DNA of 64,000 nt, from IMG/VR virus record IMGVR_UViG_3300017761_005195; one strand, 5' to 3'. The notes beneath the pieces were generated by a model. That model worked only from the letters and a program-made list of their open reading frames with translations, was not told the DNA's origin and did not search any database. Of the stretch, positions 8,748-63,828 are shown one piece after another; the stretch's first letter is position 1, and the number at the start of each line of letters is the position of its first letter. The stretch is from an uncultured virus (IMG/VR IMGVR_UViG_3300017761_005195) (taxonomy: Duplodnaviria > Heunggongvirae > Uroviricota > Caudoviricetes). The translations under genes were made by a program, and so were the position numbers.

Positions 8748-8775
8748 GTGAATAGGAAAAAATAATATATAAGAT

Positions 8776-9357
8776 ATGAAAAACTATATTTCACCAAATT
8801 ATACTTTCACTCCAGGTGATACCGGTGTTGGGACTGTGATAACAGGTATTATAAATTTCAATATAAAATTTCTAATAGTTATATTAAATGTCACAAAAGA
8901 GGAAATAATATATGCTCCTGGTCTTTCTGGTAGAGGATATACTGCTATATCATCTGATACAATAACTTTAGAGTATAACACTTCTAGTCACAGCTCAACT
9001 GATATCTTACAATTTTTGTATGAATCTACTAATGACTATCCTTCTGTAGTAGATTCGGCAAGGAATAATGATCTTTTGGCAAAGTTACAGAGATTGACTA
9101 AAATAGCTGAATCATTACAGGTTGTTGATTCCGCACAGAGACAACGTATTACAATTGACTCAATAGCTGCCTCATTGACACTAGGTACCGTAACTACAGT
9201 TGGTAGTGTTACTTCACTCGGTACTATTACCACAGTCAGTACTGTTACAAGTGTAACTAACATCGCATCAAATGCAGGTATGGATCGTGAACAATATATA
9301 AATATTGCTAAACAAACTTATGCAAATTCCATAAGGTCTAGACTAACAATACAATAA
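8776..9357 (+). CDS. virion/tail-associated protein
   Basis: 193 aa with TVTTV repeats, inside fibre cluster. Confidence 0.65.
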   Translation: MKNYISPNYTFTPGDTGVGTVITGIINFNIKFLIVILNVTKEEIIYAPGLSGRGYTAISSDTITLEYNTSSHSSTDILQFLYESTNDYPSVVDSARNNDLLAKLQRLTKIAESLQVVDSAQRQRITIDSIAASLTLGTVTTVGSVTSLGTITTVSTVTSVTNIASNAGMDREQYINIAKQTYANSIRSRLTIQ

Positions 9358-37703: not shown

Positions 37704-38058
37704 GGTTGAAGTTTCCATACTTGAATATCTTGGTAAGTTTGAACTCGGTATCTTAGTCCTAGTTAGTCTAAGTATAGAAAAAGAATACTACGAAGCTACA
37801 TTCTATTACGACCAAGAAAATATGGTATTAACCATCTCAGAAGAAATGGAAGAAAAATATGGAGATATTAAAAAATATAAACAATATCCCCTTATTCTAA
37901 AATCATTACTAAAAAAAGTAGTACCATTTAACGATATGTATAACAGATTAGATCCTGTTGATTTCTCGAAATGGATTAAAGGAATAATAGAAGTTCAAAG
38001 CCAAGATGTTCCAGAACTTATTAACCAATCAGATATTCAACCATTCTCTGGCACCTGA
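37696..38058 (+). CDS. hypothetical protein
   Basis: 120 aa. Confidence 0.65.
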   Translation: MGEVEVSILEYLGKFELGILVLVSLSIEKEYYEATFYYDQENMVLTISEEMEEKYGDIKKYKQYPLILKSLLKKVVPFNDMYNRLDPVDFSKWIKGIIEVQSQDVPELINQSDIQPFSGT

Positions 38059-43097: not shown

Positions 43098-43820
43098 CTA
43101 GACTATTTCTACCGAACCACCTAAATTATACCTTTCAAAAATAGATAAAATAAATTTTCTTTTCATATCAGTAGATGAATGAGTGTCCACCCAAAAATCT
43201 TTTACTTTAACAGCAACATTCTGTTTGTAATCAGCGAAATTATTCTTATCAGTCTTTAACATATTTGGAAAGTCTAAAGCAATCTGAACTAAATCAATTG
43301 TCTCAGAAACCTCTAATAAAAAATCTGTTAAACAATTCTTAGCCTTATTAGAAGTTATTACCCTATCACCATATGTTATCTTTAATGTAGTCCACTCAGC
43401 TTTTTTCCCAGCCCTTATCTCCTTCTCTAACTCCTTCTCAATCAAATCATCAGTCTTAACATCTATATCTAAATTAACCTCATTGAAAACAAAATTACCA
43501 TCTATTACCATATCACTTATAATCTGAAATAAAGTAGTAACCTTAGATTGAAATAAATCCCCATCTACATCATACCACTCACACCCATCATACTTATACT
43601 CAGCAAATATATTAGATATCAACTTCTCAACCTTCTCCCTATTTACATTAATGGGAATCTCCCAAGCCTTTAATATCATATACTTAATAGGTGATTTAGT
43701 CCTGCCTAATGAAAACTCCCTCTGATCCAAATTATCAGTAACACCAAACTTATAGTCTAATGGTAACTCCTTATTCTTTATGTGGTAATACCTACCAATG
43801 TAAACATATTGCTTTTTCAT
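43098..43820 (-). CDS. GIY-YIG/T5orf172-like domain protein
   Basis: YVYI...YKFGVT...RE, VEK, EWY. Confidence 0.65.
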   Translation of the reverse strand: MKKQYVYIGRYYHIKNKELPLDYKFGVTDNLDQREFSLGRTKSPIKYMILKAWEIPINVNREKVEKLISNIFAEYKYDGCEWYDVDGDLFQSKVTTLFQIISDMVIDGNFVFNEVNLDIDVKTDDLIEKELEKEIRAGKKAEWTTLKITYGDRVITSNKAKNCLTDFLLEVSETIDLVQIALDFPNMLKTDKNNFADYKQNVAVKVKDFWVDTHSSTDMKRKFILSIFERYNLGGSVEIV

Positions 43821-43823
43821 ATC

Positions 43824-43883
43824 ACAAATATACGAAATAAATTTGATAATGTTGATTTTTTTGAAAATTTTGTTAGATCAGAT
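43824..43883. repeat. promoter-bearing direct repeat, copy 2
   Basis: Near-identical to 43024-43084; contains TATATTTG on the minus strand. Confidence 0.85.
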
Positions 43884-43923
43884 GAACATCCAAACGAAAC
43901 CGTAAAAAACCGATAAATACTAA

Positions 43924-44523
43924 ATGTCAACACGTCAGGTCAAACTAATCCGAAACTGTCTCACCTGTGGGAACCCATTCCCAATCGACAATTCATATTA
44001 CATCGAAAAGCGTCCAGTACTCTATTGTTCTAAAACCTGTAAGAATCAGAAGTATACACTCAATCACAATTACTTCACACCCCCTCTGACTCCAGACAAA
44101 CTAATCACATTGGGTCAGATGGTTGCTACCTCATACATACAAAATGACCATACTATATTTGTTCGTTCAGACCTTCAGACTATTACAGACCTTCAGACTA
44201 AACTGAACTCAAATCAACCTGTCATTAAGTCAGATCAAAATAAATTAAGGTTAAAGATCTCATCTAGTCAGATGGTAAAAGATTTATCTAGTTATGGTAT
44301 TGTACATAATCAACTCTTCCAAGAGTTCATACCATATGACATATTCCAAGGACTCCTACAGACTGATTGTTATAAAATAGTAGATGGGGTTCAGACATTC
44401 CGAACCCCATCATCTAAGCTAGCTATGGAGGTGTGTTATAGGGTGAGTGGTGAGATTATCACAGAGACGTTTAAAGATGTCCCCAAGGGGGTTTTGGGTT
44501 GTTACTGGGTGGTTGTTTGGTGA
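43924..44523 (+). CDS. Zn-finger plus degenerate LAGLIDADG-like protein
   Basis: CLTC...YCSKTC; KY.LN.NYF...LG.M.A(TS)...L.ISS..MVKDL..YGI resembles phage LAGLIDADG endonucleases but lacks the catalytic DG. Confidence 0.5.
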   Translation: MSTRQVKLIRNCLTCGNPFPIDNSYYIEKRPVLYCSKTCKNQKYTLNHNYFTPPLTPDKLITLGQMVATSYIQNDHTIFVRSDLQTITDLQTKLNSNQPVIKSDQNKLRLKISSSQMVKDLSSYGIVHNQLFQEFIPYDIFQGLLQTDCYKIVDGVQTFRTPSSKLAMEVCYRVSGEIITETFKDVPKGVLGCYWVVVW

Positions 44524-44528
44524 TGTTA

Positions 44529-45773
44529 TTATTCAGTAGATTTTGCATATTCTTGTACTTCAGTGATAGATTGGACTAGTTCTGGGAACATCTTTTCCAA
44601 TAGTACATAATTCTTTATATTTTTTATATCTGTGTTAATTAGGGGTAGGCTATAAAACTTATCATCTAATCCTTTTTTGGTGGTGGTTTTTAAGTTTAGT
44701 GATTTCTTTTCATTATTGAACCTATCATATTCACCATCAACCCAGGATCTAAATTTTTTAATAATTTCCCTCAATTGTTTTTTATCAACTGATTTTTCTG
44801 AAATTTGGAGAGTTGGATTATTCTTATTGGAGGTAATGCCAAAGTGTTTTAGTACACTTTCTTTATCTTTTTTTATGAGATTGGATGTATCAATACTTAT
44901 TAACATTCTACCACCGACCCATTTATTATTAGTTCCATCTATCCCCCATCCGTTACCTAGTTTCAGGATTCTACCATTAAGACTTATGTAAATGCCTTGG
45001 TAATCGTGTGGGAAACCTTTTTTACCTTTTTTATCTAGTTCATTTTTGTTGGTATTTCTTGAGATATAATATCCTTGGAAGTCGATATCAAATGGTGTAT
45101 CATTAATTATTAGAGTTTGTGTTTTTGGATTATCCCAGGGTACAGTTTGTTCAGAACTTCTATAGAAGAGGTCAATGGGTGTTACTTCAATTGAATTTCC
45201 ATCATCAATTTTGAGTAGTATTGAATATGTTTCTGTTTTCAAGATATCATGATAATGAGCTCCTAAGTCATATCCCAATGTTTGTACACTATCAAAGATA
45301 TCATAGCTATTAGTTTTACAAGTTATGTAAAGATTATCATTATTAGGATCCTTTTCTGTGTGGTATTGGTATTCCATAGGTTTATTACTTTTGAAATTCA
45401 AATTAGCCACAATCTTTTCATTTTTAAGTGTTGTTTCTACATCTACTGTTCCGTTTTCACCAAGAAAAGTTAGTGCATAGAAAGCCCCAAGTCCATAATT
45501 ACCTATGTTATCTGAACCATAATCACCAGACTTACCTACTGAGAGGAGTTTTTTTAACTCAGGAAAGTCTAGACCTTTTTCATCATTTAGTATAGTAGTA
45601 ATACCTTTTTTCGTATCTATTTGAATATGGATATAACTGTTACCAGCATCGATGGAATTGTCAATTATTTCCATTATTGATGATTTAATGTCAAATCCAG
45701 CAGCTCTACCACCGTTCTTTGTAGGAAGATCAGTAGATACTTCTATGAGTGCTTTTTGATATGTTTGTGTCAT
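44529..45773 (-). CDS. GHKL (HATPase_c) ATPase domain protein
   Basis: EIIDNSIDA, NDEKG, IGNYGLG motifs. Confidence 0.8.
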   Translation of the reverse strand: MTQTYQKALIEVSTDLPTKNGGRAAGFDIKSSIMEIIDNSIDAGNSYIHIQIDTKKGITTILNDEKGLDFPELKKLLSVGKSGDYGSDNIGNYGLGAFYALTFLGENGTVDVETTLKNEKIVANLNFKSNKPMEYQYHTEKDPNNDNLYITCKTNSYDIFDSVQTLGYDLGAHYHDILKTETYSILLKIDDGNSIEVTPIDLFYRSSEQTVPWDNPKTQTLIINDTPFDIDFQGYYISRNTNKNELDKKGKKGFPHDYQGIYISLNGRILKLGNGWGIDGTNNKWVGGRMLISIDTSNLIKKDKESVLKHFGITSNKNNPTLQISEKSVDKKQLREIIKKFRSWVDGEYDRFNNEKKSLNLKTTTKKGLDDKFYSLPLINTDIKNIKNYVLLEKMFPELVQSITEVQEYAKSTE

Positions 45774-45900
45774 AATTTTAAATTGTTTTTTATTATATAT
45801 ATATAAAAGTTAATTACTTGTTTATATATAAAATGAAAAAATGATTTAATATATTTCTTTTTTAAAAACTATTATTGTTAGTGGGTGGTTATATGGTAGA

Positions 45901-47595
45901 TCAGAAACTATTATTTATAAGATTTATTTCTGATTTTATTTTATTTTTTATTAGGTTTAATGATTCATAATGATTTTTTAGAGATTCATTAAATTTAATT
46001 AGATTTTCCAAATTTGGTATTTTAACTGATAGGAAATCATCATCTGTTATAGATGACATGATAGAACCAGTGGTTTTGCTTTTTATTTGATTTTGTATTA
46101 GATCAGATTTGAGTAAACCGAGTATAAATTCTGGTGTATGGTTTTTTGGTTTTATTACTACAAATCCTGTACTTACTACACAATCGTTATAATCTTCTGT
46201 GATAATTGATATTTTATCTGAGGATTGTTTAAGTCTAGCAATTATTATATCACCTGTTTTTACTACGATTTTGGCTCTTGATGGTAGTTCTGTGTATTCG
46301 AGTTCATCGCATCCATTAATAAATCCAAAATCATCTATATTAGAGAATTCTATATATTTTTTAGTTCCTGTGAATGGTCTTATTCTTGTACCTGATTTAT
46401 CGCAGATAGTAGATAGGTTATGGCCAGAAACTATTGATAGGTAAAATTTAGCATCAAATCTAGTATCTTTTACTTCTTTGAAATAATTTTCATTATGATT
46501 TGTATATGAATCGATGCAATCAATTAGTTCATTTTGGGATATTTCTTTAGCGAATTTTGTTTTTCTTTCAAATCCAACTTCTTTGGGATTATAAAGGAAA
46601 GTTTTGTTGGTATTATTATCAATTTTTTTCCTAATAAATAGGATACTAGTATCACATCCTGTGCCAGAGGATTTGAATGTATTTTCTGGAAGATCTATTG
46701 AGGCTATGATATCACAATTAGATTGGATATATTTTCTCACCATTCTATCAGAGGAATTTGACAGAATCCCATCTGGTAGAACAATTGATGCTATTCCACC
46801 CTTTTTTAAGGATTTTATAATTTTTTCTATAAAGATTATTTCTAATACTTCTTCTCTTTTACCCATTGATAGGAAGAAGTTATCTAATCTATCTTTTCTT
46901 TTTTCTTTAACTCCGAATGGTGGGTTAGTTAGAATTACATCATAGAAATTTTCTTTATCATTATCAATGAAATCTTTATTATCAATCTCACAGTTAATTA
47001 TTTTATGTGCTAATAGATTTCTTTTACATACTGAAATAATTCTAGGATTTATATCTGATCCATAGTATTTTATATCATTACCATATAATTTGTGGAAATC
47101 AACTAGGAATCCACCACTTCCACAAGTTGGATCAAATACGTTTTCTATATTTAAGTCTAACTTTTTAATTATTTCATGAGTAAATTTTGAGATAAAGTTG
47201 ACTATCTTTTTGGGTGTGAAAAACTGACCTAAATCACCAGTGAAAGTTCTTCCTAAAAACTTCTCAAAAGTTCTTCCTTTAACATCCTCAGTTTCATTAA
47301 AAAGATCGTATTCTGAAAGTACAGTTAATATAGTTTCTAAAGTAGAATCTTTTAAATTAATTTGATTATCTGAAAATATATCAGTATTACCTTCATATAG
47401 TTCTTGATACTTTTTTCTTAAATCAGATGGTGTAATTATTTCATTTTTATTCATCAAACAAAAAAGAACTTTACTCATTTCATCAAAAGCATCTGATGAT
47501 GTTAAGCCGTCTATGTTTCTAATTGCATCTTGACAAGATTCAATTGCTATATTAATATTCGCCATTTTTAAAATTGTTTTTTTATTTATATACAA
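45901..47595 (-). CDS. N6-adenine DNA methyltransferase with C-terminal specificity (HsdS-like) domain
   Basis: GQFFTP, DPTCGSGGF, NPPFG, VLPDG; C-terminal SRA...GDIII, VSTGF, TGS pattern. Confidence 0.88.
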   Translation of the reverse strand: MYINKKTILKMANINIAIESCQDAIRNIDGLTSSDAFDEMSKVLFCLMNKNEIITPSDLRKKYQELYEGNTDIFSDNQINLKDSTLETILTVLSEYDLFNETEDVKGRTFEKFLGRTFTGDLGQFFTPKKIVNFISKFTHEIIKKLDLNIENVFDPTCGSGGFLVDFHKLYGNDIKYYGSDINPRIISVCKRNLLAHKIINCEIDNKDFIDNDKENFYDVILTNPPFGVKEKRKDRLDNFFLSMGKREEVLEIIFIEKIIKSLKKGGIASIVLPDGILSNSSDRMVRKYIQSNCDIIASIDLPENTFKSSGTGCDTSILFIRKKIDNNTNKTFLYNPKEVGFERKTKFAKEISQNELIDCIDSYTNHNENYFKEVKDTRFDAKFYLSIVSGHNLSTICDKSGTRIRPFTGTKKYIEFSNIDDFGFINGCDELEYTELPSRAKIVVKTGDIIIARLKQSSDKISIITEDYNDCVVSTGFVVIKPKNHTPEFILGLLKSDLIQNQIKSKTTGSIMSSITDDDFLSVKIPNLENLIKFNESLKNHYESLNLIKNKIKSEINLINNSF

Positions 47596-47624
47596 AAAAT
47601 GTAAATTGTTTTACAAAAAATGTA

Positions 47625-48644
47625 CTAAAACTTAGAAGTGAAATACATCTTTTCTAGTTCATCTGTTGAGTATGAATCTAATTCAGATTGAAGGGTTAGA
47701 TGGTTTTCCTTTGTAGCTTTCATATCATAGATTCTCATTATGAGTTGTTTCCTCCAAGTAAAGTCGTGTGAATAACCCCCTTGATGTCTATTGCTTTCAG
47801 AAGTACCAATAACTGTGTTTTTGGATGTTGTTGTATAGTCTAGTTCTGGGTTAATGTGGCAGAATTCTAGTCCTTTCACTTTTGAGTGGTGTGTATTAGA
47901 ATCGAAATATTTCCAAGAGATAGGGGTTTTATAGTAATAGTCTACAAGGTAGAATTCTCTTGGTGCATATCCTTTAGTAGCCCAGAAATCTTTAATATCT
48001 TGTGGGGTGTCAATTATACTAAGTATATCAATAAGTCTTTCTTCGAATATTTTAATAGCTTGGGAGAATCCACACTGGTCGGACTTTCTAATTCCATTCG
48101 GAAGAAGGGTAGAATCATCAGTTTCCCATTTTTGGATATCAGATACTCTTGACTGTCTAGTTCCACGGTTCTTATGTGGTGAACCAGGTTTAGCTTTCAT
48201 ACCAGTCCTTAATACGGTTTCATTTAAAACTTTATTTTTATCCTTTTGAAATAAGATTTCTTCACTAATCGTAGCTGCTGGACTTCCTTTAGCTTGGAAT
48301 ACCCAGGTTGAAAAGGTAGTGAACTGTTTTTGATATTGTGGGTATTTATTAGTGAATTCAGACAGCCACTTTTTAAGTGTTGAGTATTTTTCTGGTTCAA
48401 TAACATATTCGTTTATGGTGTCTGAAAGTTCCTGAGTCAATTGGATTTCCTCTATAAGATTACTATTTAGTAGATCATTGAACTTATCAATATTAAGGAG
48501 ACTATCTTGCCCTTGGCAATAAATTTCGGTTTTATAAGACTTCTTAGTAGGCACTTGTTGGAAAACTATAATAGAGTTTTCTACTAAATAGCTTTTCTGT
48601 CCTGTTACGACCGATGTTATAACTTTATAATATTTTTTTTTCAT
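47625..48644 (-). CDS. putative restriction endonuclease (HNH/beta-beta-alpha-Me type)
   Basis: FCHINP...N.......SNRHQG motif next to the methyltransferase. Confidence 0.55.
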   Translation of the reverse strand: MKKKYYKVITSVVTGQKSYLVENSIIVFQQVPTKKSYKTEIYCQGQDSLLNIDKFNDLLNSNLIEEIQLTQELSDTINEYVIEPEKYSTLKKWLSEFTNKYPQYQKQFTTFSTWVFQAKGSPAATISEEILFQKDKNKVLNETVLRTGMKAKPGSPHKNRGTRQSRVSDIQKWETDDSTLLPNGIRKSDQCGFSQAIKIFEERLIDILSIIDTPQDIKDFWATKGYAPREFYLVDYYYKTPISWKYFDSNTHHSKVKGLEFCHINPELDYTTTSKNTVIGTSESNRHQGGYSHDFTWRKQLIMRIYDMKATKENHLTLQSELDSYSTDELEKMYFTSKF

Positions 48645-50863: not shown

Positions 50864-51097
50864 TTATTTAGGTGTTCCTGTAATTATAACTTTACTACTA
50901 ATTTCTGATGATTTTGGATAACATTCATCCCACATTTTTTGTAGTTGTTCTGGCGTATATCTTCTTTTCAAATCTTCCAAATCATCAGAAATTGGATAGT
51001 TTGGTCTAAATCCGTTATAAACACTACTACTAACATCAGATATATGTAATTTTTTATCTGATTTATCGAGTTCTCCGCTATTATTATCTTTATCCAT
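50864..51097 (-). CDS. cassette 1 ORF (starts inside attC-like loop)
   Basis: KKLHISDVSSS reads through the TAAC core. Confidence 0.65.
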   Translation of the reverse strand: MDKDNNSGELDKSDKKLHISDVSSSVYNGFRPNYPISDDLEDLKRRYTPEQLQKMWDECYPKSSEISSKVIITGTPK

Positions 51098-51157
51098 ATT
51101 ATTTAAGTTTATTGTTTCAATTTAAGTAAAAACTACATATATCTGTAATAGTTATAA
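51028..51157 (+). repeat. attC-like site A (ISDV family)
   Basis: TAAC at CAGATATATGTA ... TACATATATCTG taata GTTA. Confidence 0.8.
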
Positions 51158-51165
51158 GTAATAAA

Positions 51166-51480
51166 TTAAAAACCAGTTTGTCTAAAATCTTTACACATCT
51201 TAGCAATTATATCTCTACTTTTGTAAGATTTTTCTATTTCTTCTTTTGATAGAAAATAAACTTCACTATTGATACAATAGTTAAGAAATAGTGATGATAT
51301 ATGTTGTAAAAATAGAAAAATCTTACTCCTAACATCATAGTCAGAAGTATCCATATTACCAATAAAAGATTTTAGAGAAACTTGAATATGAAATTCTATC
51401 TTTTCATCATCAAGTCTCAATGTTTCATCAACTATTTTTTTACTAAATTCGTAATCTTTATATTCTAATTTCATATTCAA
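51166..51480 (-). CDS. cassette 2 ORF
   Basis: About 104 aa between sites A and B. Confidence 0.65.
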   Translation of the reverse strand: MNMKLEYKDYEFSKKIVDETLRLDDEKIEFHIQVSLKSFIGNMDTSDYDVRSKIFLFLQHISSLFLNYCINSEVYFLSKEEIEKSYKSRDIIAKMCKDFRQTGF

Positions 51481-51499
51481 ATGTTTTTAATTTACATAC

Positions 51500-51553
51500 T
51501 TATAACAAATGATAAACAACATTAAAACGATTGTTTATCATCGGACGTTATGT
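51500..51553 (+). repeat. attC-like site B (short 54-bp family)
   Basis: TAAC aa ATGATAAACAA cattaaaacga TTGTTTATCAT cggac GTTA. Confidence 0.85.
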
Positions 51554-51564
51554 GTAATAATTTT

Positions 51565-51822
51565 TTATCCGCCTAACTCTGAAATTCTATTTTGAATTTT
51601 CTTTTTTAAATTAAGAAACCCCTCTTTTTGTTGTTTCTCCATTTCTTCAACAGATAGATTTCTCATTTTCGCTTTCATCTTTTTAATAACATCACTATCT
51701 TTACCAATATTATCAATATCCATATCAACATATCTTTCTAATTCTTTAAGATATTCTATATCTGTTGATTTTTCAATATCCTTATTAATGTCAAAGTTAT
51801 TAAAATTTTCTAAGTATTTCAT
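51565..51822 (-). CDS. cassette 3 ORF (MKYLENF leader)
   Basis: 85 aa with its own TATATA motif upstream. Confidence 0.65.
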   Translation of the reverse strand: MKYLENFNNFDINKDIEKSTDIEYLKELERYVDMDIDNIGKDSDVIKKMKAKMRNLSVEEMEKQQKEGFLNLKKKIQNRISELGG

Positions 51823-51887
51823 AATTTAAGTTTATTTAGTTTATATATAAAAATTCAAAATAGAAATCCCTCCCACAAAATTACTAC

Positions 51888-51941
51888 ACATAACAAATGA
51901 TAAACAACATTAAAACGATTGTTTATCATCAGACGTTATAT
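51888..51941 (+). repeat. attC-like site C (short family)
   Basis: One mismatch from site B between the cores. Confidence 0.85.
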
Positions 51942-51947
51942 TCAATT

Positions 51948-52208
51948 TTAATATTCGAATGGTTTATCCATATGTGTTTTTAATAATTGAACAAACTTTT
52001 CATAAATGATATTGAAGTCTTCATCTTCTAACTCCAATGAAGAATTTTCTTCCATTACTTTTGCTAATTGATATATCATGTCAATATCATTTATTCCAAC
52101 ACTATTTAGTGCTAAATTTGATGCTAAGATGTTTCTATTACCACAAACAGGATAATTAAGGTTTGTGTAAAAAGTTTGTTCAATTATTTTTCTTACTTTA
52201 TCTTTCAT
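51948..52208 (-). CDS. cassette 4 ORF
   Basis: 86 aa. Confidence 0.65.
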   Translation of the reverse strand: MKDKVRKIIEQTFYTNLNYPVCGNRNILASNLALNSVGINDIDMIYQLAKVMEENSSLELEDEDFNIIYEKFVQLLKTHMDKPFEY

Positions 52209-52236
52209 TGTATTTGTATTTGAATATTATAACTAA

Positions 52237-52328
52237 ATATAACAAGGTATATATGAAATACCTTATAAAGTTTATACTAAATTTAAAGTTTTGTGGTAAG
52301 GTACTTCACATATACCCAACCGTTATAA
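52237..52328 (+). repeat. attC-like site D (GGTATAT family)
   Basis: TAAC aa GGTATATATGAAATACCT ... AGGTACTTCACATATACC caacc GTTA. Confidence 0.85.
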
Positions 52329-52339
52329 GTAGTTAAGAA

Positions 52340-52424
52340 AGTGGTGGTTGGACTCGAACCAACGTCCTCCGAAATTCCTGATTGGTTACAGCAAATCGTA
52401 CTCTCCCATCTGAGTTACACCACT
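52340..52424 (-). ncRNA. tRNA-like element with expanded anticodon arm (cassette 5)
   Basis: AGTGGTG/CACCACT acceptor, ACTC/GAGT D-stem, GTTGG-TTCGAGT-CCAAC T-arm; about 30-nt anticodon region containing CTGTAAC. Confidence 0.65.
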
Positions 52425-52435
52425 TTCTTAACTAC

Positions 52436-52557
52436 TTATAACAACAAATATAAAACATTTTATTCGTTTTTCAAAATAAAGTTTATACTAATTGTCAAGT
52501 TTATTCATTTTATTTAAGTTCTGTGTTAAAACGTTTTATATTTGCAATACGTTATAG
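52436..52557 (+). repeat. attC-like site E
   Basis: TAAC aa CAAATATAAAAC ... GTTTTATATTTG caatac GTTA. Confidence 0.8.
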
Positions 52558-52566
52558 GTAATAAAA

Positions 52567-52731
52567 TTAAACCTCATACCTATAAAGTATAGTCAAAAAC
52601 GAACCACTGTCTAATATACTTATAATAGCATCCGCATCAATGTTCCTGTTTTGCAAACCTTCATCAATACGTTCAAGTTCGTTTTTCCCACAAGTAAAGT
52701 AACCAATTCTTTTTTTAATAGTAATATTCAT
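52567..52731 (-). CDS. cassette 6 ORF
   Basis: 54 aa (MNITIKKRIGYFTC...), below the ORF-track cutoff. Confidence 0.55.
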   Translation of the reverse strand: MNITIKKRIGYFTCGKNELERIDEGLQNRNIDADAIISILDSGSFLTILYRYEV

Positions 52732-52750
52732 AATGTTTAATTTTACATAC

Positions 52751-52844
52751 CTATAACAAAGTGTATAAGAAAGTTTGCTACAGCAGTTGTGATAATTTGA
52801 AAATTAGTTTAAGCAAACCTTCTCATACACCCAATCCGTTATAT
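52751..52844 (+). repeat. attC-like site F
   Basis: TAAC aa aGTGTATaAGAAaGTTTGCT ... AGCAAACcTTCTcATACACc caatcc GTTA. Confidence 0.8.
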
Positions 52845-52848
52845 TCAA

Positions 52849-53049
52849 TTAAATTATTGTTTTGATTTTTAATAACTTATCAGATATTCTATAATCCTCG
52901 TTTTTATTATGATATTTTATCAATTCATCTATTTCATTATTTGAGACTTCCAAACCTTCTCTTAGTATCTGATAAGTTTTCCAAACCATTGAAAAATTAT
53001 TGTGTGATGATTTAAAACCATCCATTTCTATTTTATCTAATATATCCAT
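52849..53049 (-). CDS. cassette 7 ORF b
   Basis: 66 aa. Confidence 0.6.
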   Translation of the reverse strand: MDILDKIEMDGFKSSHNNFSMVWKTYQILREGLEVSNNEIDELIKYHNKNEDYRISDKLLKIKTII

Positions 53050-53050
53050 C

Positions 53051-53176
53051 TTAATCTTTAAATTTGAATAAGTCTTTTAATTTACCTGACCATGTTGTAT
53101 CTATACAACGCATCAATATAAATATAATAAACCACAATATAATACCACCTAAAATTAAAAGACTTATTTTTATCAT
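53051..53176 (-). CDS. cassette 7 ORF a, small membrane protein
   Basis: 41 aa hydrophobic ORF coupled to ORF b. Confidence 0.5.
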   Translation of the reverse strand: MIKISLLILGGIILWFIIFILMRCIDTTWSGKLKDLFKFKD

Positions 53177-53217
53177 AAACAAGATTTTTATAATTTGTAA
53201 AACAATAATTTAACTAA

Positions 53218-53303
53218 ATATAACAACAAATATAAGAAATAAATTTTGATTTATCTAGTTTTTTATAGGAAAAATTTACTTCTCATATTTGCAAACGTTA
53301 GGT
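53218..53303 (+). repeat. attC-like site G (CAAATATAAGAA family)
   Basis: TAAC aa CAAATATaAGAAaTAAAT ... ATTTAcTTCTcATATTTG caaac GTTA. Confidence 0.85.
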
Positions 53304-53492
53304 TCAATCATTAATTTGTTTTGAACGTTCTATTACTTTCTTCAATAATTCATCTTTCCATTTAGAAAATATTTCAACCGACCTGTCTGTTGTATCAGTT
53401 TGGTATAATGATGAGTAATATCCTTTATCAAAGAATTCACCACAAATATTTTCTAATTCACTTTCTGTTAAAATTACAAATCCCTTTTCCAT
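53304..53492 (-). CDS. cassette 8 ORF
   Basis: MEKGFVIL start; own TACCTTTG promoter at 53517-53524. Confidence 0.6.
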   Translation of the reverse strand: MEKGFVILTESELENICGEFFDKGYYSSLYQTDTTDRSVEIFSKWKDELLKKVIERSKQIND

Positions 53493-53542
53493 ATTATTTA
53501 TTGTTTTTAATTTATACAAAGGTAAAACAAATTAATGACAAA

Positions 53543-53596
53543 ACCTAACAAATGATAAACAACATTAAAACGATTGTTTATCATCAGACGTTATGT
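53543..53596 (+). repeat. attC-like site H (short family)
   Basis: Same internal sequence as site C. Confidence 0.85.
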
Positions 53597-53776
53597 TTAA
53601 TTATTATAATATTTTGACATTTTTTTATCAACATCACTAATTTTTATTCCAATTTTAGTTATCCAATCACTAAATTTATTACTTGAAATTAATGTAGTAA
53701 TTAATGATAATATTACTATTATAATTGTAATAAAAATTAAAATAACCCACCACATTATCCCTATTATTTTTTTCAT
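53597..53776 (-). CDS. cassette 9 ORF, membrane protein
   Basis: MKKIIGIMWWVILIF hydrophobic helix. Confidence 0.6.
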   Translation of the reverse strand: MKKIIGIMWWVILIFITIIIVILSLITTLISSNKFSDWITKIGIKISDVDKKMSKYYNN

Positions 53777-53801
53777 ATTGTAAAATATTATAATAACTAA
53801 A

Positions 53802-53855
53802 ACATAACAACAAATATATTGCATTAAAACGACAATATATTTGCAACCGTTATAT
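53802..53855 (+). repeat. attC-like site I (short-family loop, different arms)
   Basis: TAAC aa CAAATATATTG cattaaaacga CAATATATTTG caacc GTTA. Confidence 0.85.
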
Positions 53856-53861
53856 GAAATA

Positions 53862-54065
53862 TTAATTTTTAGAGTGCCAGTCCCATTTTGTAATCCAACA
53901 TACTTCCAAATTCTTCATCAACCAACCTCTCGATATTTTACCATTTTCGTCAAATATACTCTTTATTTTACTAATTTGATATGAAGAATTTGTAACCCAT
54001 CCTATCCAAGCTTCATCATAACCTTCAAGTTTAACCTTGTCGCCAATTTTAAGTTCTGTAATCAT
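53862..54065 (-). CDS. cassette 10 ORF
   Basis: 67 aa, LKIGDKV SH3-like start. Confidence 0.6.
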   Translation of the reverse strand: MITELKIGDKVKLEGYDEAWIGWVTNSSYQISKIKSIFDENGKISRGWLMKNLEVCWITKWDWHSKN

Positions 54066-54093
54066 ATTATTTAGTTTTAAAAATTAATACATC

Positions 54094-54178
54094 ATATAAC
54101 AACAAATATAAGAAATAAATCTTACTTTGTCTATTTTTTAATGAAAAGATTTACTTCTCATATTTGCAACCGTTAGAA
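54094..54178 (+). repeat. attC-like site J (CAAATATAAGAA family)
   Basis: Near-identical to site T. Confidence 0.85.
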
Positions 54179-54191
54179 GTAATAAAATAAA

Positions 54192-54449
54192 TTATATATC
54201 AAACTTCTCTGATTCAAGTTTTTTAATCTTTCTATCAAGTATTTCATTAAACTCTTCAGTTGAAATATTATATCCCTTAATTCTTTCAAACATAGATTTC
54301 AAAACTTGAATCGCATAGTCAATCTGACCATTTATTATTTCCTTTTCCATATCATCCATAGATTCATTTATTTTACTACTTCTAACATCAGATATATTCA
54401 AGTTTTCTTCTGACTCGTTAAATCTTTTTATGTGTTTTAAATCTTTCAT
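54192..54449 (-). CDS. cassette 11 ORF (leader encoded in attC-like loop)
   Basis: MKDLKHIKRFNESEENLNISDV reads through the core. Confidence 0.65.
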   Translation of the reverse strand: MKDLKHIKRFNESEENLNISDVRSSKINESMDDMEKEIINGQIDYAIQVLKSMFERIKGYNISTEEFNEILDRKIKKLESEKFDI

Positions 54450-54513
54450 CTTCGTAAGTTATTTTTTAGTATATATTAAAAGAAAACCTAAATATATCTG
54501 AGTATCGTTATGT
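54380..54513 (+). repeat. attC-like site K (ISDV family, carries promoter and start codon)
   Basis: TAAC at CAGATATATT ... AATATATCTG agtatc GTTA; TAATATATA on minus strand in loop. Confidence 0.8.
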
Positions 54514-54582
54514 GTAAGTGTTCCGTTCATCATTCTAATTAACATTTAGGTAGAAAATTTTTAAAGAAAAACCCGCCACACA

Positions 54583-55008
54583 TTATAAAAAAGATTGACC
54601 ATCCCAACCATAAACCACACCGTATTCATCAACCATTAAACCTAATTTTCTTGCTAAATCATCAGCCTTATAATCATTTGGTAATCTCCCAAATAATGCT
54701 TCATCATCACTTGGAGAATCTAATCTTTGAACTTGCCAATAATACCCATTCAACTTTTTACCATTAAAAGTTCTCTCACTGTGATATTTCTCGTTTGGTG
54801 CTTCTGTATCGGAATCGAATACAGCCCAACCTTGTTTATGAGTATAATCACTATATTCACTTTGAAACCAATCTATGAATTTTTTAATTTTATCAAAATC
54901 ATAAAATATTTTATCATCAAAGTCTTTCAAATTACCATCCTTATCAATATATGATTCATTCAAAAACTCTCGTATGGTTGTTTTAATAAATTGTTTTAAG
55001 TCTTTCAT
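54583..55008 (-). CDS. cassette 12 ORF (MKDLKQFIKTTIREFLNE leader)
   Basis: 141 aa. Confidence 0.7.
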   Translation of the reverse strand: MKDLKQFIKTTIREFLNESYIDKDGNLKDFDDKIFYDFDKIKKFIDWFQSEYSDYTHKQGWAVFDSDTEAPNEKYHSERTFNGKKLNGYYWQVQRLDSPSDDEALFGRLPNDYKADDLARKLGLMVDEYGVVYGWDGQSFL

Positions 55009-55120
55009 CCTTTTCTTTTATATATAAATATTAAGAATTAAAATACCAACCCTTCTTTTTCTTTTAAAATTTTTGTTCAGTTCTTCGAATAAACATTTTA
55101 CCTTAATAATCCACACCTAT

Positions 55121-55174
55121 ACATAACAAAGTGTAAAAAACATTAAAACGATTTTTTACACTCAACCGTTATAA
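55121..55174 (+). repeat. attC-like site L (short-family loop)
   Basis: TAAC aa AGTGTAAAAAA cattaaaacga TTTTTTACACT caacc GTTA. Confidence 0.85.
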
Positions 55175-55184
55175 AACATAAAAA

Positions 55185-55379
55185 TTATTGCGGTTCTAAC
55201 TGAGCAATATGGAATGCAAATATATAACCATTTATTTTTCCATCATACATTGTATCCATACCAGACCATTGTCTTCCTTCAATAACAATTCCATAATGCT
55301 CATTTCGCTTATCTATAACTTTGAACTTTGATAATTTGCCTTTAAGTTTATCCATATAATACATAATTTTTACATTCAT
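55185..55379 (-). CDS. cassette 13 ORF
   Basis: Up to 64 aa; start codon uncertain. Confidence 0.55.
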   Translation of the reverse strand: MNVKIMYYMDKLKGKLSKFKVIDKRNEHYGIVIEGRQWSGMDTMYDGKINGYIFAFHIAQLEPQ

Positions 55380-55470
55380 ATAACAAGGTATATGTGAAAT
55401 ACCTCATAAAGTTTCTACTAATTATTTAAGTTTCGTGGTAAGGTACTTCACATATACCCAACCGTTATAA
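55378..55470 (+). repeat. attC-like site M (GGTATAT family)
   Basis: Near-identical to sites D and R. Confidence 0.85.
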
Positions 55471-55653
55471 GCCATTTTGGGAACCCCACTCTTGAAACAA
55501 CTTTTCCAGTTCTTCACAGTCATATACAGGCTCATCGCTTTCTCCCATAGTTACTGTCCAATTTTCACTTGAGTGCCTTGTGTATTTGTTTAGTTCGTTT
55601 TCATCTGTTTCAACATAAAAAACGATTGACTTTGTTGCGTTTATAATTTTCAT
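55465..55653 (-). CDS. cassette 14 ORF
   Basis: 62 aa; stop codon is the TTA of the GTTA core. Confidence 0.65.
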   Translation of the reverse strand: MKIINATKSIVFYVETDENELNKYTRHSSENWTVTMGESDEPVYDCEELEKLFQEWGSQNGL

Positions 55654-55682
55654 TTTATTTTAAATTTGTGAAGAAAAACGGC

Positions 55683-55814
55683 TTATAACAGCACATACCC
55701 AAAAGAGGGGTTTTAGTGGTTATATGAACATTTTTACTTCGATTAAACATTTGTTTTTATATTAAATTTTGTGCTTCGTAATCACCTCCTTCGGGTATCT
55801 GCAAAATGTTATGA
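55683..55814 (+). repeat. attC-like site N
   Basis: TAAC aGCAcATACCC..AAGAGG ... CCTCcTTcGGGTATcTGC aaaat GTTA. Confidence 0.75.
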
Positions 55815-56030
55815 AACATATTTCCACACACCTATTTCCATAAACAAGTACTTTAGTGATTTGATTCTTCTATCCAAGTTATCATAATCAAAAGAATCGT
55901 TGCATTTACTTATGTTAATTTTTGCTTGTTTATATTCATCTATCAACTCTTCAATACGTTTCATAACATCAGATATATGTAATTTTTTATCTGTGTCATT
56001 AACTTCTGTGTTCTTATTTTCTGTATTCAT
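55809..56030 (-). CDS. cassette 15 ORF (starts in attC-like loop)
   Basis: DKKLHISDVMKR; stop codon in the GTTA core. Confidence 0.65.
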   Translation of the reverse strand: MNTENKNTEVNDTDKKLHISDVMKRIEELIDEYKQAKINISKCNDSFDYDNLDRRIKSLKYLFMEIGVWKYVS

Positions 56031-56090
56031 ATTATTTAATTTTTGTATTTCAATTTAAGAAAAAACTACATATATCTGTGTCCGTTATAA
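55961..56090 (+). repeat. attC-like site O (ISDV family)
   Basis: Paralogous to site A. Confidence 0.8.
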
Positions 56091-56105
56091 GTAATAAAAA
56101 TAAAA

Positions 56106-56288
56106 TTATTGATATAACACATATATACCTTCATAATCACCAAAAATAGTTAATTTTTCATTTGGTATATTGTAATCAAATTTTAGTCTATTACCTTCTG
56201 TGTCCCATACATCAGTTATGTATTCCGCTTTGATGAAAAATAAACTATTATTTCCATCATATTCTTTTCTTATTAATCTTGTTTTCAT
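56106..56288 (-). CDS. cassette 16 ORF
   Basis: 60 aa. Confidence 0.6.
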   Translation of the reverse strand: MKTRLIRKEYDGNNSLFFIKAEYITDVWDTEGNRLKFDYNIPNEKLTIFGDYEGIYVLYQ

Positions 56289-56312
56289 TTGTATAATTTT
56301 ATTTTTACATAC

Positions 56313-56422
56313 TTATAACAATGTGTAAAAAACATTTAAACGATTTTTTACACGCCAAAAAGCGGTTTTACATTTATTTAAGTTTTTCGGTGGCGTACCT
56401 CTCATATACGCAACCGTTAGCA
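56313..56422 (+). repeat. attC-like site P (hybrid of two families)
   Basis: Left part is a short-family hairpin; right end ctcatatacgcaaccGTTA resembles the long families. Confidence 0.65.
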
Positions 56423-56701
56423 GTAATTGCTAAGAGCCTTGATATTAATAAATCCTATTTCTTGGGCGTGTTCCATTGAAAAACTAACTGTGTAAACCTT
56501 CAACCCTTTTTCAATTGTTACTTTAACCATTGAACTAAAACTATCTATAAATATATTAGTTACATTATGGGTTATATCTTTACCTTCTTTTACATCGTAA
56601 AACCCTACACCCCAAGAAATAACACAACCGCAACTACTGCTAACAATAGGTTTATTCAATGCGGGGTTCCTGCTCCCAAATAACATTTTTAGTAATTTCA
56701 T
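56417..56701 (-). CDS. cassette 17 ORF (starts in attC-like loop)
   Basis: NPALNKPIVSSS reads through the core. Confidence 0.6.
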   Translation of the reverse strand: MKLLKMLFGSRNPALNKPIVSSSCGCVISWGVGFYDVKEGKDITHNVTNIFIDSFSSMVKVTIEKGLKVYTVSFSMEHAQEIGFINIKALSNYC

Positions 56702-56767
56702 ATTTTCTGCTTTTAAATTAATTTATCTGTTCAATCCCGCACTAAATAAACCTGCAAAACGTTATAA
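56638..56767 (+). repeat. attC-like site Q
   Basis: TAAC aa tAGGTTTATT..aTGCGGG ... CCCGCAc..AATAAACCTg caaaac GTTA. Confidence 0.8.
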
Positions 56768-56956
56768 AACATTTTTCAATACACCAAGTTCCTTTGATTT
56801 TACTAAAAATTCTGTTTCATCTTCCAAAGAAAGAGTTGAAAACAAATGATGTTCTACTAAATAAGATGGTGCGTTTGATGTAACCAAATCATTTAATTTA
56901 GCTTTATCCCAGAATTTTTCAACTCTTTCTTCTTGTTCTTTTGTTAATTTTTCCAT
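56762..56956 (-). CDS. cassette 18 ORF
   Basis: 64 aa; stop codon in core. Confidence 0.65.
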   Translation of the reverse strand: MEKLTKEQEERVEKFWDKAKLNDLVTSNAPSYLVEHHLFSTLSLEDETEFLVKSKELGVLKNVL

Positions 56957-56967
56957 ATTAAAACGTT

Positions 56968-57060
56968 TTATAACAAGGTATATGTGAAATACCTTATAAA
57001 GTTTCTACTAATTTTTAAAGTTTTGTGGTAAGGTACTTCACATATACCCAACCGTTAGTG
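56968..57060 (+). repeat. attC-like site R (GGTATAT family)
   Basis: Near-identical to sites D and M. Confidence 0.85.
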
Positions 57061-57074
57061 ATAATAAATTTGAA

Positions 57075-57386
57075 TTATTTAGTCTTATATAACTTACAAT
57101 CAAAATTATTTTCAGATAACATATCATTCATAAATCCGATGTGTCTATTTTCATCACCCTCTGGTTCAAATTTCACAAAAATGGAATAGTTATCTGAAAC
57201 TAATAGTGACCAATCCATAGGTTTTAATTTAACAGAATCATCATAATTTTGATTGATAAAGTTTATACCATCCAAAATCTCATCCATATCTGGACCTATC
57301 ATTTCAAATTTACTATCACTAACATTAGATATATTCAAGTTTTCTTGATGTTCGTTAAATAATTTAACGTGTTTTAAATTTTTCAT
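57075..57386 (-). CDS. cassette 19 ORF (leader in attC-like loop)
   Basis: MKNLKHVKLFNEHQENLNISNV. Confidence 0.65.
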   Translation of the reverse strand: MKNLKHVKLFNEHQENLNISNVSDSKFEMIGPDMDEILDGINFINQNYDDSVKLKPMDWSLLVSDNYSIFVKFEPEGDENRHIGFMNDMLSENNFDCKLYKTK

Positions 57387-57450
57387 CTTTGTTTATTATT
57401 TTTTAGTATATATTAAAAGAAAATCTAAATATATCTGAGTATCGTTATAT
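57317..57450 (+). repeat. attC-like site S (ISDV family)
   Basis: Paralogous to site K, including the promoter and leader. Confidence 0.8.
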
Positions 57451-57463
57451 TCAATACCAAAAA

Positions 57464-57703
57464 TTATTCAAATTCTATAATAAAAAAATCATCGAAGTCC
57501 ATATCACCAGCACCGTAAGTATAATTCACTTTCAGTTTTGTTTCAGATATTATATCATATCCATCATAAGCGTGATATGTTCCAATCGGTTTTTCTTCAT
57601 TACTAAATCGTTCAATATACTTACTACGAGCAAAGTCATTTACTACTGCTCTATGATTAGCAACCTTAGCTAATACTTCTAATGATTTTTTTATATTTTC
57701 CAT
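57464..57703 (-). CDS. cassette 20 ORF
   Basis: 79 aa. Confidence 0.65.
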   Translation of the reverse strand: MENIKKSLEVLAKVANHRAVVNDFARSKYIERFSNEEKPIGTYHAYDGYDIISETKLKVNYTYGAGDMDFDDFFIIEFE

Positions 57704-57726
57704 GTGTTAATAATTTTTGATACTAA

Positions 57727-57812
57727 ATATAACAACAAATATAAGAAATAAATCTTAATTTGTCTAATTTTTTAATGAAAAGATTTACTTCTCATATTTG
57801 CAACCGTTAGTG
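57727..57812 (+). repeat. attC-like site T (CAAATATAAGAA family)
   Basis: Near-identical to site J; last site of the continuous array. Confidence 0.85.
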
Positions 57813-57964
57813 GCAATTTGAGCCAAATAAAAAATTATATTCGTTCATATACCATTTTTCGTCTATTGAATGTTGTATAAATCTAAGTGGATGCGTACCG
57901 GCATCATGCCATGTTGCCCAGGTCATAAAACAAAGATAAGGGAAATAAGTTAGAAAAACAAATA

Positions 57965-58004
57965 AAAAAAAATAGTTAAGAGTATTTCTTAACTATTTTT
58001 TTTT
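57965..58004. terminator. probable terminator
   Basis: A-run TAGTTAAGA..TCTTAACTA T-run, downstream of 58027-58521. Confidence 0.6.
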
Positions 58005-58026
58005 ATAAGTTCCTCCTTGGTCATTA

Positions 58027-58521
58027 TTATTCCCAGCTGTCTCGTACTGGTCTTCCTCTGTCTCTCCACTCTTTATCAGCTTTTACACTCTTACCTGGAA
58101 TGACTTTACCATTTGACCATTTCTCCCATACATCACCATTGAGCTGATATACCTCTACTCCACTAACGTTAACCTTATTCTTAAAATCATTAACTATAGT
58201 ATCATAATCACCAGGTCCTCTAAACTCTGGTAGGTCAGGGAAAGTATCATGAACGATTCCAAAGATTCCATCAGGTTGAAATCCTTTACCTCCCATTCCA
58301 AGTGGAACTTTAACACCAAATTCTGAGTTTAGTTCTGACTTACTTATCATATCTACATTTTTTTGATTTTCACTAGGTATTCTTAACTTATCAAAAATCA
58401 CCTTCTTACAAGCAAGTTCAAAACTATACTCATTATCACGACTTTCTTGTCCACCAAATTCGTCATAGGCACTACCACCCTGAGCCTCATTAACAAACTT
58501 ATTGAATTTCTTAATAATCAT
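58027..58521 (-). CDS. hypothetical protein with IKKFNKFVNE leader
   Basis: 164 aa; AATATATA upstream. Confidence 0.7.
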   Translation of the reverse strand: MIIKKFNKFVNEAQGGSAYDEFGGQESRDNEYSFELACKKVIFDKLRIPSENQKNVDMISKSELNSEFGVKVPLGMGGKGFQPDGIFGIVHDTFPDLPEFRGPGDYDTIVNDFKNKVNVSGVEVYQLNGDVWEKWSNGKVIPGKSVKADKEWRDRGRPVRDSWE

Positions 58522-58590
58522 ATATTGTTATATTTTTTTTTATATATTTAATTGAAAAAACAGATTATTTAATTCTAATATAGAATGTTT

Positions 58591-58818
58591 TTATGAGTTT
58601 TTTATTTCTGATAATTTGCTTATAACATTATCAATTACACCTTTACAAAAATCTCTTTCCAAAGTTAATGTAAGTGCTTGTTCAGCATCTATTCCAACGC
58701 CATTTGACGCTCTTTCAATTATTTGTTCATCTGTAAGCATTCCAAATTCTGCAAGATGCTTCATCAAGTCATTTTGCGTTGGAAATAGTTTTCCTAATAT
58801 GTGTCCACTTTCATTCAT
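58591..58818 (-). CDS. hypothetical protein
   Basis: 75 aa. Confidence 0.55.
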   Translation of the reverse strand: MNESGHILGKLFPTQNDLMKHLAEFGMLTDEQIIERASNGVGIDAEQALTLTLERDFCKGVIDNVISKLSEIKNS

Positions 58819-58905
58819 ATTTGATTTGGTTTTAATTTACTAAATTAAAAATTAGAGGCATCTACTAATAGTTTATCTAAATAGTCTTTAGTAAAAAACT
58901 CTTCA

Positions 58906-59100
58906 TCACTCATAATTACATTTATCACATATTCGCTCTCTAACATCATAAGTTAGATTTTCTTCATTCTCTTGAATTGTGAGTTCCAACCCACAAACAC
59001 AGCACATAACATCAGATAAACTCAATTTTTTATCGAGCAATCCAACTCTATTCAAGTGCTGATTTAACCAATTGTTTTTGTAATATATTTTCTTTTCCAT
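58906..59100 (-). CDS. cassette-type ORF starting in attC-like loop, Zn-ribbon-like
   Basis: KKLSLSDVMCCVC...CDKC. Confidence 0.55.
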   Translation of the reverse strand: MEKKIYYKNNWLNQHLNRVGLLDKKLSLSDVMCCVCGLELTIQENEENLTYDVRERICDKCNYE

Positions 59101-59133
59101 AATAAAAACTGAGTTTATCTGCAACCGTTATAA
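59004..59133 (+). repeat. attC-like site U
   Basis: TAAC at CAGATAAACTCA ... TGAGTTTATCTG caacc GTTA. Confidence 0.8.
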
Positions 59134-63506: not shown

Positions 63507-63583
63507 AAGACAAAGGTAGTCATTTGGTTTGAGAGTTCCAAATTTATTAAAGATAAGGTTATTGTTGAAAACCTAATAAAAAG

Positions 63584-63669
63584 ACCACTGGTGGGATTTG
63601 AACCCCAAAGACCTTGCGTATCGGTCACCCTCCTGTTCGTCCGTTCCAAACGTAACTTACATCAGTGGT
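63584..63669 (-). ncRNA. degenerate tRNA-like element
   Basis: ACCACTG/CAGTGGT closing stem and GGG-TTCAAAT-CCC T-arm; D and anticodon arms non-canonical. Confidence 0.4.
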
Positions 63670-63725
63670 TTTTAATCAATAGGGGGATTACGAATCCCTA
63701 GAACAGGTACTCCTATTGAAGTTTG

Positions 63726-63828
63726 TAGTCAGGACAGGATTCGAACCTGCGGTCATCAGGGTATAGGTACTAGGTTACCACCCCTCAGACTCTTCCTAGT
63801 TAGCGTTAGCCCACTCCGCCACCTGACT
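63726..63828 (-). ncRNA. tRNA-like element with expanded anticodon region
   Basis: AGTCAGG/CCTGACT acceptor, TGGCGGAGTGGGCTAACGC D-arm, GCAGG-TTCGAAT-CCTGT T-arm; ACTAGG/CCTAGT stem with about 20-nt loop. Confidence 0.6.

Follow-up and report, generated by a model that had tools for sequence, protein, structure and literature searches.

A mobile cassette with its own promoter motif carries a probably non-decoding tRNA-shaped RNA in an integron-like phage array

The common view of cassette arrays is that they store protein genes, and sRNA-Xcc1 is the sole RNA-coding cassette named in the sections of the reviews covered here. What is an ORF-less cassette with a tRNA-shaped fold doing in a phage-borne array: does it move as a cassette, and does its RNA decode? 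We addressed these questions by computational analysis of one window, meaning the whole 64,000-nt stretch of DNA, which is part of a large AT-rich freshwater phage (a megaphage) and is present in freshwater metagenomes. Its translations include topoisomerase II-like, DnaK-like and UV-endonuclease-like genes. Because perfect TTTG-N19-21-TAnnTTTG motifs number 12 in the window, where 200 shuffles averaged 1.9 and never exceeded 8, the host is probably a member of the Bacteroidota. A block at 43098-48644 encodes a T5orf172/MUG113 protein, a GHKL ATPase, an N6-methyltransferase and a 339-aa protein of no assigned family, and looks like an acquired restriction-modification-type module. Coordinates of the main features are collected in Table 1.

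Table 1. Features of the RNA cassette, its surroundings and ORF-less bodies of related arrays
Feature	Position	Strand	Basis or remarks
tRNA-shaped RNA gene	52339..52424	-	ARAGORN, Rfam RF00005, covariation in 13 homologues
Extended arm in place of anticodon arm, 29 nt	52370..52398	-	
RNA cassette body	52322..52442	.	Closed by a perfect 25-bp inverted repeat, in which the cassette-end repeat prolongs the acceptor stem outwards
Complete mobile cassette, 229 bp	52323..52551	+	G↓TTA crossover points; inferred from order changes and the neighbour insertion in L072 vs L079
attC-like hairpin travelling with the RNA cassette	52439..52554	+	TAAC, 2 nt, arm ... arm', 6 nt, GTTA
Neighbouring cassette's att	52240..52325	+	Strong hairpin; immediately follows the RNA as it is transcribed
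Predicted Bacteroidota sigma-A type promoter inside att	52445..52475	-	TTTG, 19 nt, TATATTTG; -33 box and spacing assumed
Integron-like cassette array	51031..59130	+	20 att sites called; bodies mostly with small minus-strand ORFs
T4 Rnl1-type RNA ligase	38029-39120		PF09511
Window member of the shared-acceptor superfamily, 102 nt	63723-63828	-	
ORF-less folded body, L094	5315-5485 (oriented)		171 nt, three T-loop-like hairpins
ORF-less folded body, L100	6174-6276 (oriented)		103 nt
ORF-less folded body, L102/L107	9902-10004 (oriented)		103 nt
ORF-less folded bodies, L108	4990-5097, 5500-5574 (oriented)		108 nt and 75 nt

An earlier note on this DNA, made from the letters alone, had described a 121-bp unit without an ORF, closed by a perfect 25-bp inverted repeat. 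The repeat is as described: 52322-52346 and 52418-52442 are 100% complementary over 25 nt. The size is right for the body and too small for the mobile unit, which is the body plus its right-hand att, 229 bp in all. A mechanical list does contain two ORFs that overlap the body, at 52163-52336 (57 codons) and 52341-52517 (58 codons, GTG start), which are unsupported as genes. For the 121-nt minus strand the predicted fold has -50.7 kcal/mol (z -7.8; 0/200 shuffles equally stable), and since the 86-nt tRNA part alone reaches only z -0.79, this stability is due to the terminal repeat.

Body ends in this system (window 51151-59010, L083-L111) are complementary over ~10-27 bp, except that position 11 is almost always mismatched. 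The RNA cassette had been singled out as the only body without this mismatch, and among the 19 window bodies between called att sites it is indeed the sole one whose ends match uninterrupted through position 11; one further body matches there, but only via a 1-nt shift. Related arrays contain 122 distinct bodies, 95 of which were kept for comparison (at least 10/14 terminal matches and >60 nt). Position 11 was matched in 5% of these and a perfect repeat longer than 10 nt occurred in 0/95, while in 72/95 the mismatch was A opposite C on the top strand, that is G.T on the bottom strand. It is possibly a strand-selection signal of the cassette system.

The att sites read, on the plus strand, TAAC, 2-3 nt, arm ... 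arm', 5-7 nt, GTTA. Their arms pair over 9-11 bp with no early extra base, and the spacers are uneven (2 vs 4-7 nt). Comparison of the window with loci L081 and L070 showed that each body travels together with its right-hand att (e.g. W_b7 with an 80-nt att and W_b4 with an 86-nt att), so the RNA cassette has the limits given in Table 1 and the plus strand corresponds to the integron top strand. In five long att hairpins (51031-51154, 54383-54510, 55964-56087, 57320-57447 and 59007-59130) the cassette's own ORF starts in the hairpin and runs through it, the att arm thus doubling as coding sequence. A 17-nt motif ending TTA↓GTTA is repeated at window positions 48983, 50836 and 61949, ahead of solo or first cassettes, and these are candidate attI-like insertion sites. 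The 7 small ORFs of the array region had no Pfam match, and the neighbouring ORF at 51948-52208 had no relatives among viral contigs.

Homologues of the RNA occupy cassettes at five other loci (L068, L070, L072, L079 and L081). Across the six cassette copies, resemblance to the window breaks off at the TAAC/GTTA boundary and what comes next downstream differs, with five neighbours among the six, the change falling exactly at G↓TTA; cassette order differs among the window, L081 and L070. L079 has one cassette more than L072: 659 nt long and encoding a Dam methyltransferase, it sits next to the RNA cassette with its insertion point precisely at TTTA↓GTTA, a proximal-type insertion at a locus with no recombinase in view. 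The bodies of L070 and L081 are identical to the window's, so these two are not independent lineages. The proposal that the system mobilises structured RNA genes is thus borne out by one RNA cassette with different neighbours in six loci, and by further ORF-less folded bodies in related arrays. At least 4 such short bodies other than the RNA's were recognised by inspection of predicted folds among the 122 distinct bodies (Table 1); their folded interiors are GC-richer, Rfam has no family for them, and a perfect -7 box lies in the att of 4/5. An SmpB-like protein (translation inspected) is encoded within 10 kb of the arrays in L099, L102, L107 and L111.

We looked for the enzyme among the related arrays, 29 viral loci found by an att-pattern scan. 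In 11 of the 29 the array is flanked by a divergently oriented tyrosine recombinase gene; two of these loci are one contig, and three of the copies are short pieces. The array-side recombinases match PF00589 and PF13495 (2/2 scanned). Against the integron integrase model TIGR02249 they score 147-160 bits in two stretches (4/4), where the cut-off is 265, and no integrase above the family cut-off with the IntI-specific insertion was seen; judged by these profiles, the array-side recombinase is not a true IntI. The 64,000-nt window yielded no recombinase, and neither the related 462-kb record LR756500.1 nor two short viral records contained a PF00589 recombinase. Polaribacter phage Freya_10 (37%) is among the nearest GenBank relatives of the recombinase; it was discarded as a model for the system, its positions 1-9000 containing no att sites. 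As for membership among integron cassettes, the hairpin bounds RYYYAAC...GTTRRRY and exchange at G↓TT are both present. Canonical attC geometry includes an extrahelical base in the L'' box, and this is missing here, as are top-strand sense genes expressed from Pc; the RNA is antisense with its own promoter.

What is the cargo? ARAGORN called tRNA-Tyr(gta) at 52337-52425 on the minus strand, and Rfam RF00005 matched with 41.6 bits (gathering 29, E 4.4e-6), leaving the anticodon arm unaligned; no other Rfam family matched, and the RNA did not qualify as YrlA, tmRNA or allo-tRNA. These results uphold the minus-strand tRNA-like fold, with canonical D- and T-arms and an acceptor stem inside the repeat, that had been read from the letters. 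It comprises a 7-bp acceptor (A1-U72, U73, no encoded CCA), a 4-bp D stem, a 6-nt variable loop and a canonical T arm, with an acceptor/T branch of 7/5 rather than 8/4 or 9/3. The anticodon region, put at about 30 nt with a CTGTAAC, proved to be 29-30 nt long and does contain that sequence. It forms an extended arm of 3 bp, a 1x2 internal loop, 2 bp, G.G, 3 bp and an 8-nt loop, UAACCAAU, and holds a 17-nt core identical in all aligned homologues.

The alignment contained 13 distinct sequences, 11 types over positions 1-72. All 24 pairs of this fold are kept in all 13 sequences (100% of 312 cells). Eleven pairs show changes on both sides, 3 of them in the extended arm, and all four helices have some; 0/500 shuffles reached the observed level and slid controls paired at no more than 45%. 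Since the homologues are few (11 sequence types) and related, the compensatory changes represent few independent events. The supported fold pairs CUG with CAG and so buries GUA; in 4/13 single-sequence ensembles the inner CUG/CAG pairing probability is ≤0.09.

The GTA had earlier been taken as a Tyr-like anticodon, and one can imagine a functional tRNA-Tyr(GUA) making good the loss of host tRNA-Tyr when a defence such as retron-Eco7 PtuAB cleaves it, as T5 tRNA-Tyr rescues from retron-Eco7 (PMC11555353, in part). Besides the ARAGORN call, CUGUAAC resembles an anticodon loop and could be closed by a bulged 6-bp stem. Covariation and energies nevertheless favour the arm in which GUA is buried: the Tyr-type arm has 0 compensatory pairs and one pair broken in 7/13 sequences, is 6-8 kcal/mol less stable, and has a probability of ≤0.01 in all 13, and we rejected it on these grounds. 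For the other homologues the ARAGORN label is Ile(gat) or an intron-containing Ser. Bacterial Tyr identity requires G1-C72 and A73 (according to the part of PMC9976931 covered here), whereas this RNA has A1-U72 and U73, a buried GUA and no long variable arm. More generally, of the features of a decoding tRNA it has the cloverleaf with 7-bp acceptor, D and T arms, and lacks the 5-bp anticodon stem and the 7-nt loop with U33 and R37. With GUA buried in a covariation-backed arm and the Tyr identity elements absent, the RNA is probably non-decoding, as far as sequence can tell, and we rank a working tRNA-Tyr as the least likely of the readings considered here. One practical consequence is that tRNA finders mislabel such genes as Tyr, Ile or Ser.

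Could the long arm instead contain an intron, spliced out to give a decoding tRNA and sealed by a phage RNA ligase? The window does encode a suitable T4 Rnl1-type enzyme, tRNA introns occur in Lak megaphages (PMC6784885, in part), and one 12-nt removal leaves a perfect 5-bp stem in 4/4 arm types. That product, however, has C33 rather than U33, and among excisions of 8-16 nt none combined a 5-pair stem with a canonical 7-nt loop bearing U33/R37. Excision would also break the compensatory pairs that hold the arm, and the Lak Tyr intron in the supplement of PMC6784885 (the part consulted) is 93 nt long and unrelated in sequence. Intron excision to a canonical anticodon arm was rejected because its sole perfect-stem product has C33, and we consider a spliced pre-tRNA improbable.

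The att that travels with the RNA contains a promoter motif aimed at it, with a predicted transcription start at ~52440, 15-16 nt before the first base of the RNA. For the motif scan we took the -33 box and spacing to be those of Bacteroidota sigma-A type promoters. The -7 box position is that given in the relevant part of PMC9723704. The full motif is present in 6/6 cassette copies, in three different att sequences, and ends 2 nt before the GTTA crossover; in L070 it is retained although an 80-nt deletion took the remainder of that site. Of the 20 window atts only this one has the full motif, and of the 95 other cassettes 2 do (the -7 box alone occurs in 22/95). Metatranscriptome contigs X21, X22 and X24 extend over adjacent sequence but leave 52338-52404 uncovered, so that neither expression nor its absence is shown; one X21 contig reaches 52405 and has the same 80-nt att deletion as L070. 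Metatranscriptome libraries often lose short structured RNAs.

The same promoter could serve the array rather than the RNA, driving downstream cassettes while the tRNA-like fold acts as RNase P/RNase Z punctuation (t-element-like) that cuts and stabilises the message, with no role in trans. Among the window atts the full motif is confined to the RNA cassette's own; the longest ORF is antisense, on the same minus strand, in 83/85 bodies of related arrays; no intrinsic terminator was found in 51800-52800; and promoter-bearing ORF-less cassettes are known (PMC6557892 and PMC8876359, in part). All this fits punctuation. The neighbouring att downstream of the RNA forms a minus-strand hairpin of -30.2 kcal/mol (z -5.8). 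Processing, however, needs the top half only, yet it is the 17-nt core of the lower arm that is invariant and the top half that is remodelled in 6 bp. Moreover, the same RNA exists free, and 0/12 free copies have the full motif within ~270 nt. We regard punctuation as unlikely, and prefer a cargo that works in its own right.

A search for homologues outside arrays had been proposed, and it succeeded. A family pattern hit 16 metagenome loci, all of them members, 5 in arrays and 11 free-standing, and free-standing homologues were also present in 7 viral contigs; other ARAGORN tRNA calls lie within 1.5 kb of 5/11 free-standing metagenome copies. Two of the homologue searches fixed all or part of the core in the pattern and two left it free, and the latter recovered the same 17-nt core in all 7 member contigs (7/16 and 7/8 matches). 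The core 16-mer by itself is not diagnostic, 34/41 of its matches lying outside a tRNA-like context. An exact search for the 25-nt repeat in viral contigs gave 0 matches, a D-arm pattern search 1 that was not tRNA-like, and the family pattern 0 in GTDB genome contigs. GenBank phages contained no full-length family member, DNA search of five large array-bearing virus records found none, and model R1 gave only tRNA-level scores in five further array-bearing records (≤46 bits vs 108 for the window copy).

In an unrooted tree of these short sequences the cassette copies group together on a single branch with support 1.0, and the L069/L080 type is their neighbour. That branch is long and has six remodelled top-half pairs, which fits an origin from a free copy. 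Free-standing homologues have a 7-8-bp acceptor stem only, with no extended repeat; in L068, L072 and L079 the body is 119 nt long, shares the 5' leader and has the usual position-11 mismatch plus a 2-nt bulge at its 3' end. The idea that a pre-existing stem-closed element became a cassette is therefore not supported. Since three cassette relatives retain the mismatch, the perfect 25-bp repeat is probably a late, derived change. It is most simply explained if, in one lineage, the 5' end served as template for the 3' end, and quasi-palindrome correction is a mechanism for such copying. The RNA most likely began as a free-standing phage copy that acquired cassette ends and whose top half was remodelled; the end copying in this lineage would have come later.

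A large set of phage tRNA-like genes, 70-195 nt long and with unrelated lower halves, has the same acceptor stem and T arm as the free copies; one of these genes lies in the window. Three tandem tRNA-top-half-like elements occupy 63583-63828 (minus): beside the 102-nt member are a short mini-helix (~63665-63715) and an 85-nt element with an acceptor and T-like arm (~63586-63670). The shared T-arm/acceptor motif also occurs in 22 genome-contig loci (L112-L133), all in metagenome-assembled genomes and about half labelled Bacteroidota, which are possibly phage contigs in bins. Further phage tRNA-like genes, unrelated to these, have a long replacement of the anticodon arm (L044, L051-L053 and L055-L059), and some of them belong to GC-rich phages.

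An RNA that persisted only through cassette copying would be a neutral or selfish passenger. Empty 29-nt bodies do exist in related arrays (L100 5775-5803 and L108 3302-3330, oriented; they resemble a nested 48-bp-type att arm). Against a passenger stand the compensatory changes in all four helices, the invariant core and the promoter kept in three att sequences; a mere passenger is very improbable, ranking just above the tRNA-Tyr reading.

We therefore return to a cargo with a function of its own, and lean, with slightly better than even confidence, towards a mobile self-promoted cassette whose non-decoding tRNA-shaped RNA acts in trans as a putative tRNA mimic or decoy. A short Xer/IntI-like tyrosine recombinase, as found beside related arrays, would move the cassette, and host RNA polymerase would initiate at the predicted start. 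Host RNase P, 3' trimming and CCA addition would mature the RNA via its tRNA top half; a possible obstacle is the 25-bp closing helix, which might impede RNase P or become a substrate for RNase III. The product would present a tRNA elbow and acceptor helix with a fixed 29-nt hairpin replacing the anticodon arm, and as a stable mimic may bind or soak up a host tRNA-handling or tRNA-attacking protein during infection, the array keeping it as an optional module for counter-defence or host takeover. Neither a target protein nor a defence system nor a co-occurring partner gene was identified for the RNA. A broader picture, which we offer as possible and somewhat doubtful, is that Bacteroidota megaphages use a non-IntI integron-like system to reshuffle a library of non-coding RNA genes (the tRNA mimic, the three-T-loop RNA and several folded others), the recombination hairpin doubling as promoter and the cargo serving as swappable RNA decoys against host tRNA-targeting defences.

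Because a tRNA-shaped RNA is a swappable cassette, the system shuffles RNA genes as well as protein genes. An optional cassette of this kind, with a promoter in its recombination site, extends the cargo range to structured RNA, and cassette status marks the RNA as an accessory gene under selection. We know of no job for phage tRNA-like RNAs, either T5 RNA1 and RNA2 or the large shared-acceptor family; a 229-bp self-contained unit with natural present and absent variants makes their role directly testable.

How does the cassette compare with known systems? sRNA-Xcc1 of Xanthomonas campestris is an ORF-less, RNA-coding integron cassette (cited in the parts of PMC6557892 and PMC8876359 covered here), and promoter-bearing gene-less cassettes have been described (bioRxiv 10.1101/2023.11.21.568050, in part). 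Like these ORF-less cassettes, as portrayed in those parts, ours has TAAC...GTT hairpin bounds, crossover at G↓TT, and an RNA gene with its own promoter. Unlike them, it carries tRNA-shaped cargo antisense to the top strand, its promoter lies inside the att, the att has uneven spacers (2 vs 5-6 nt) and no canonical extra base, and the neighbouring recombinase is, by its profile scores, not a true IntI. The CALINs and integrons reported from phage genomes (PMC9892861, in part) likewise comprise attC-like arrays in phages with methyltransferase cassettes, whereas here we find a megaphage, up to 18-20 called sites, extended body-end repeats with the position-11 mismatch, a phage-borne 265-aa recombinase (in related arrays) and RNA cargo. 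The word 'tRNA' is absent from the main text of the integron literature searched, including PMC9892861, and a literature search covering mostly open-access papers and bioRxiv main texts yielded no tRNA-like cassette and none of the RNA's sequences.

On the RNA side, the cloverleaf frame and above-gathering score are those of canonical tRNA-Tyr(GUA) and RF00005; unlike bacterial tRNA-Tyr, the RNA has a 29-nt arm with an 8-nt loop, a buried GUA, A1-U72, U73 and no long variable arm. It is an irregular tRNA-shaped RNA like allo-tRNAs and other non-translating tRNAs, and, in the part of PMC5389517 covered, some irregular tRNAs are not used in translation and lie near mobile or toxin-antitoxin genes. 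Allo-tRNAs differ in having an 8/4 or 9/3 acceptor branch, whereas here the branch is the standard 7/5 and the anticodon arm is altered. T5 RNA1 and RNA2, annotated as tRNA-like stable RNAs of unknown functions (AY543070), also keep acceptor, D-like and T arms with the anticodon region replaced, and the T-arm sequence of RNA2 equals that of some family members; they do not share the family's core sequence, are longer (125-144 nt), and are fixed in the T5 tRNA region rather than carried as a cassette. In a combination absent from the literature searched, the cassette thus unites two known kinds, a phage integron-like array and a tRNA-like RNA.
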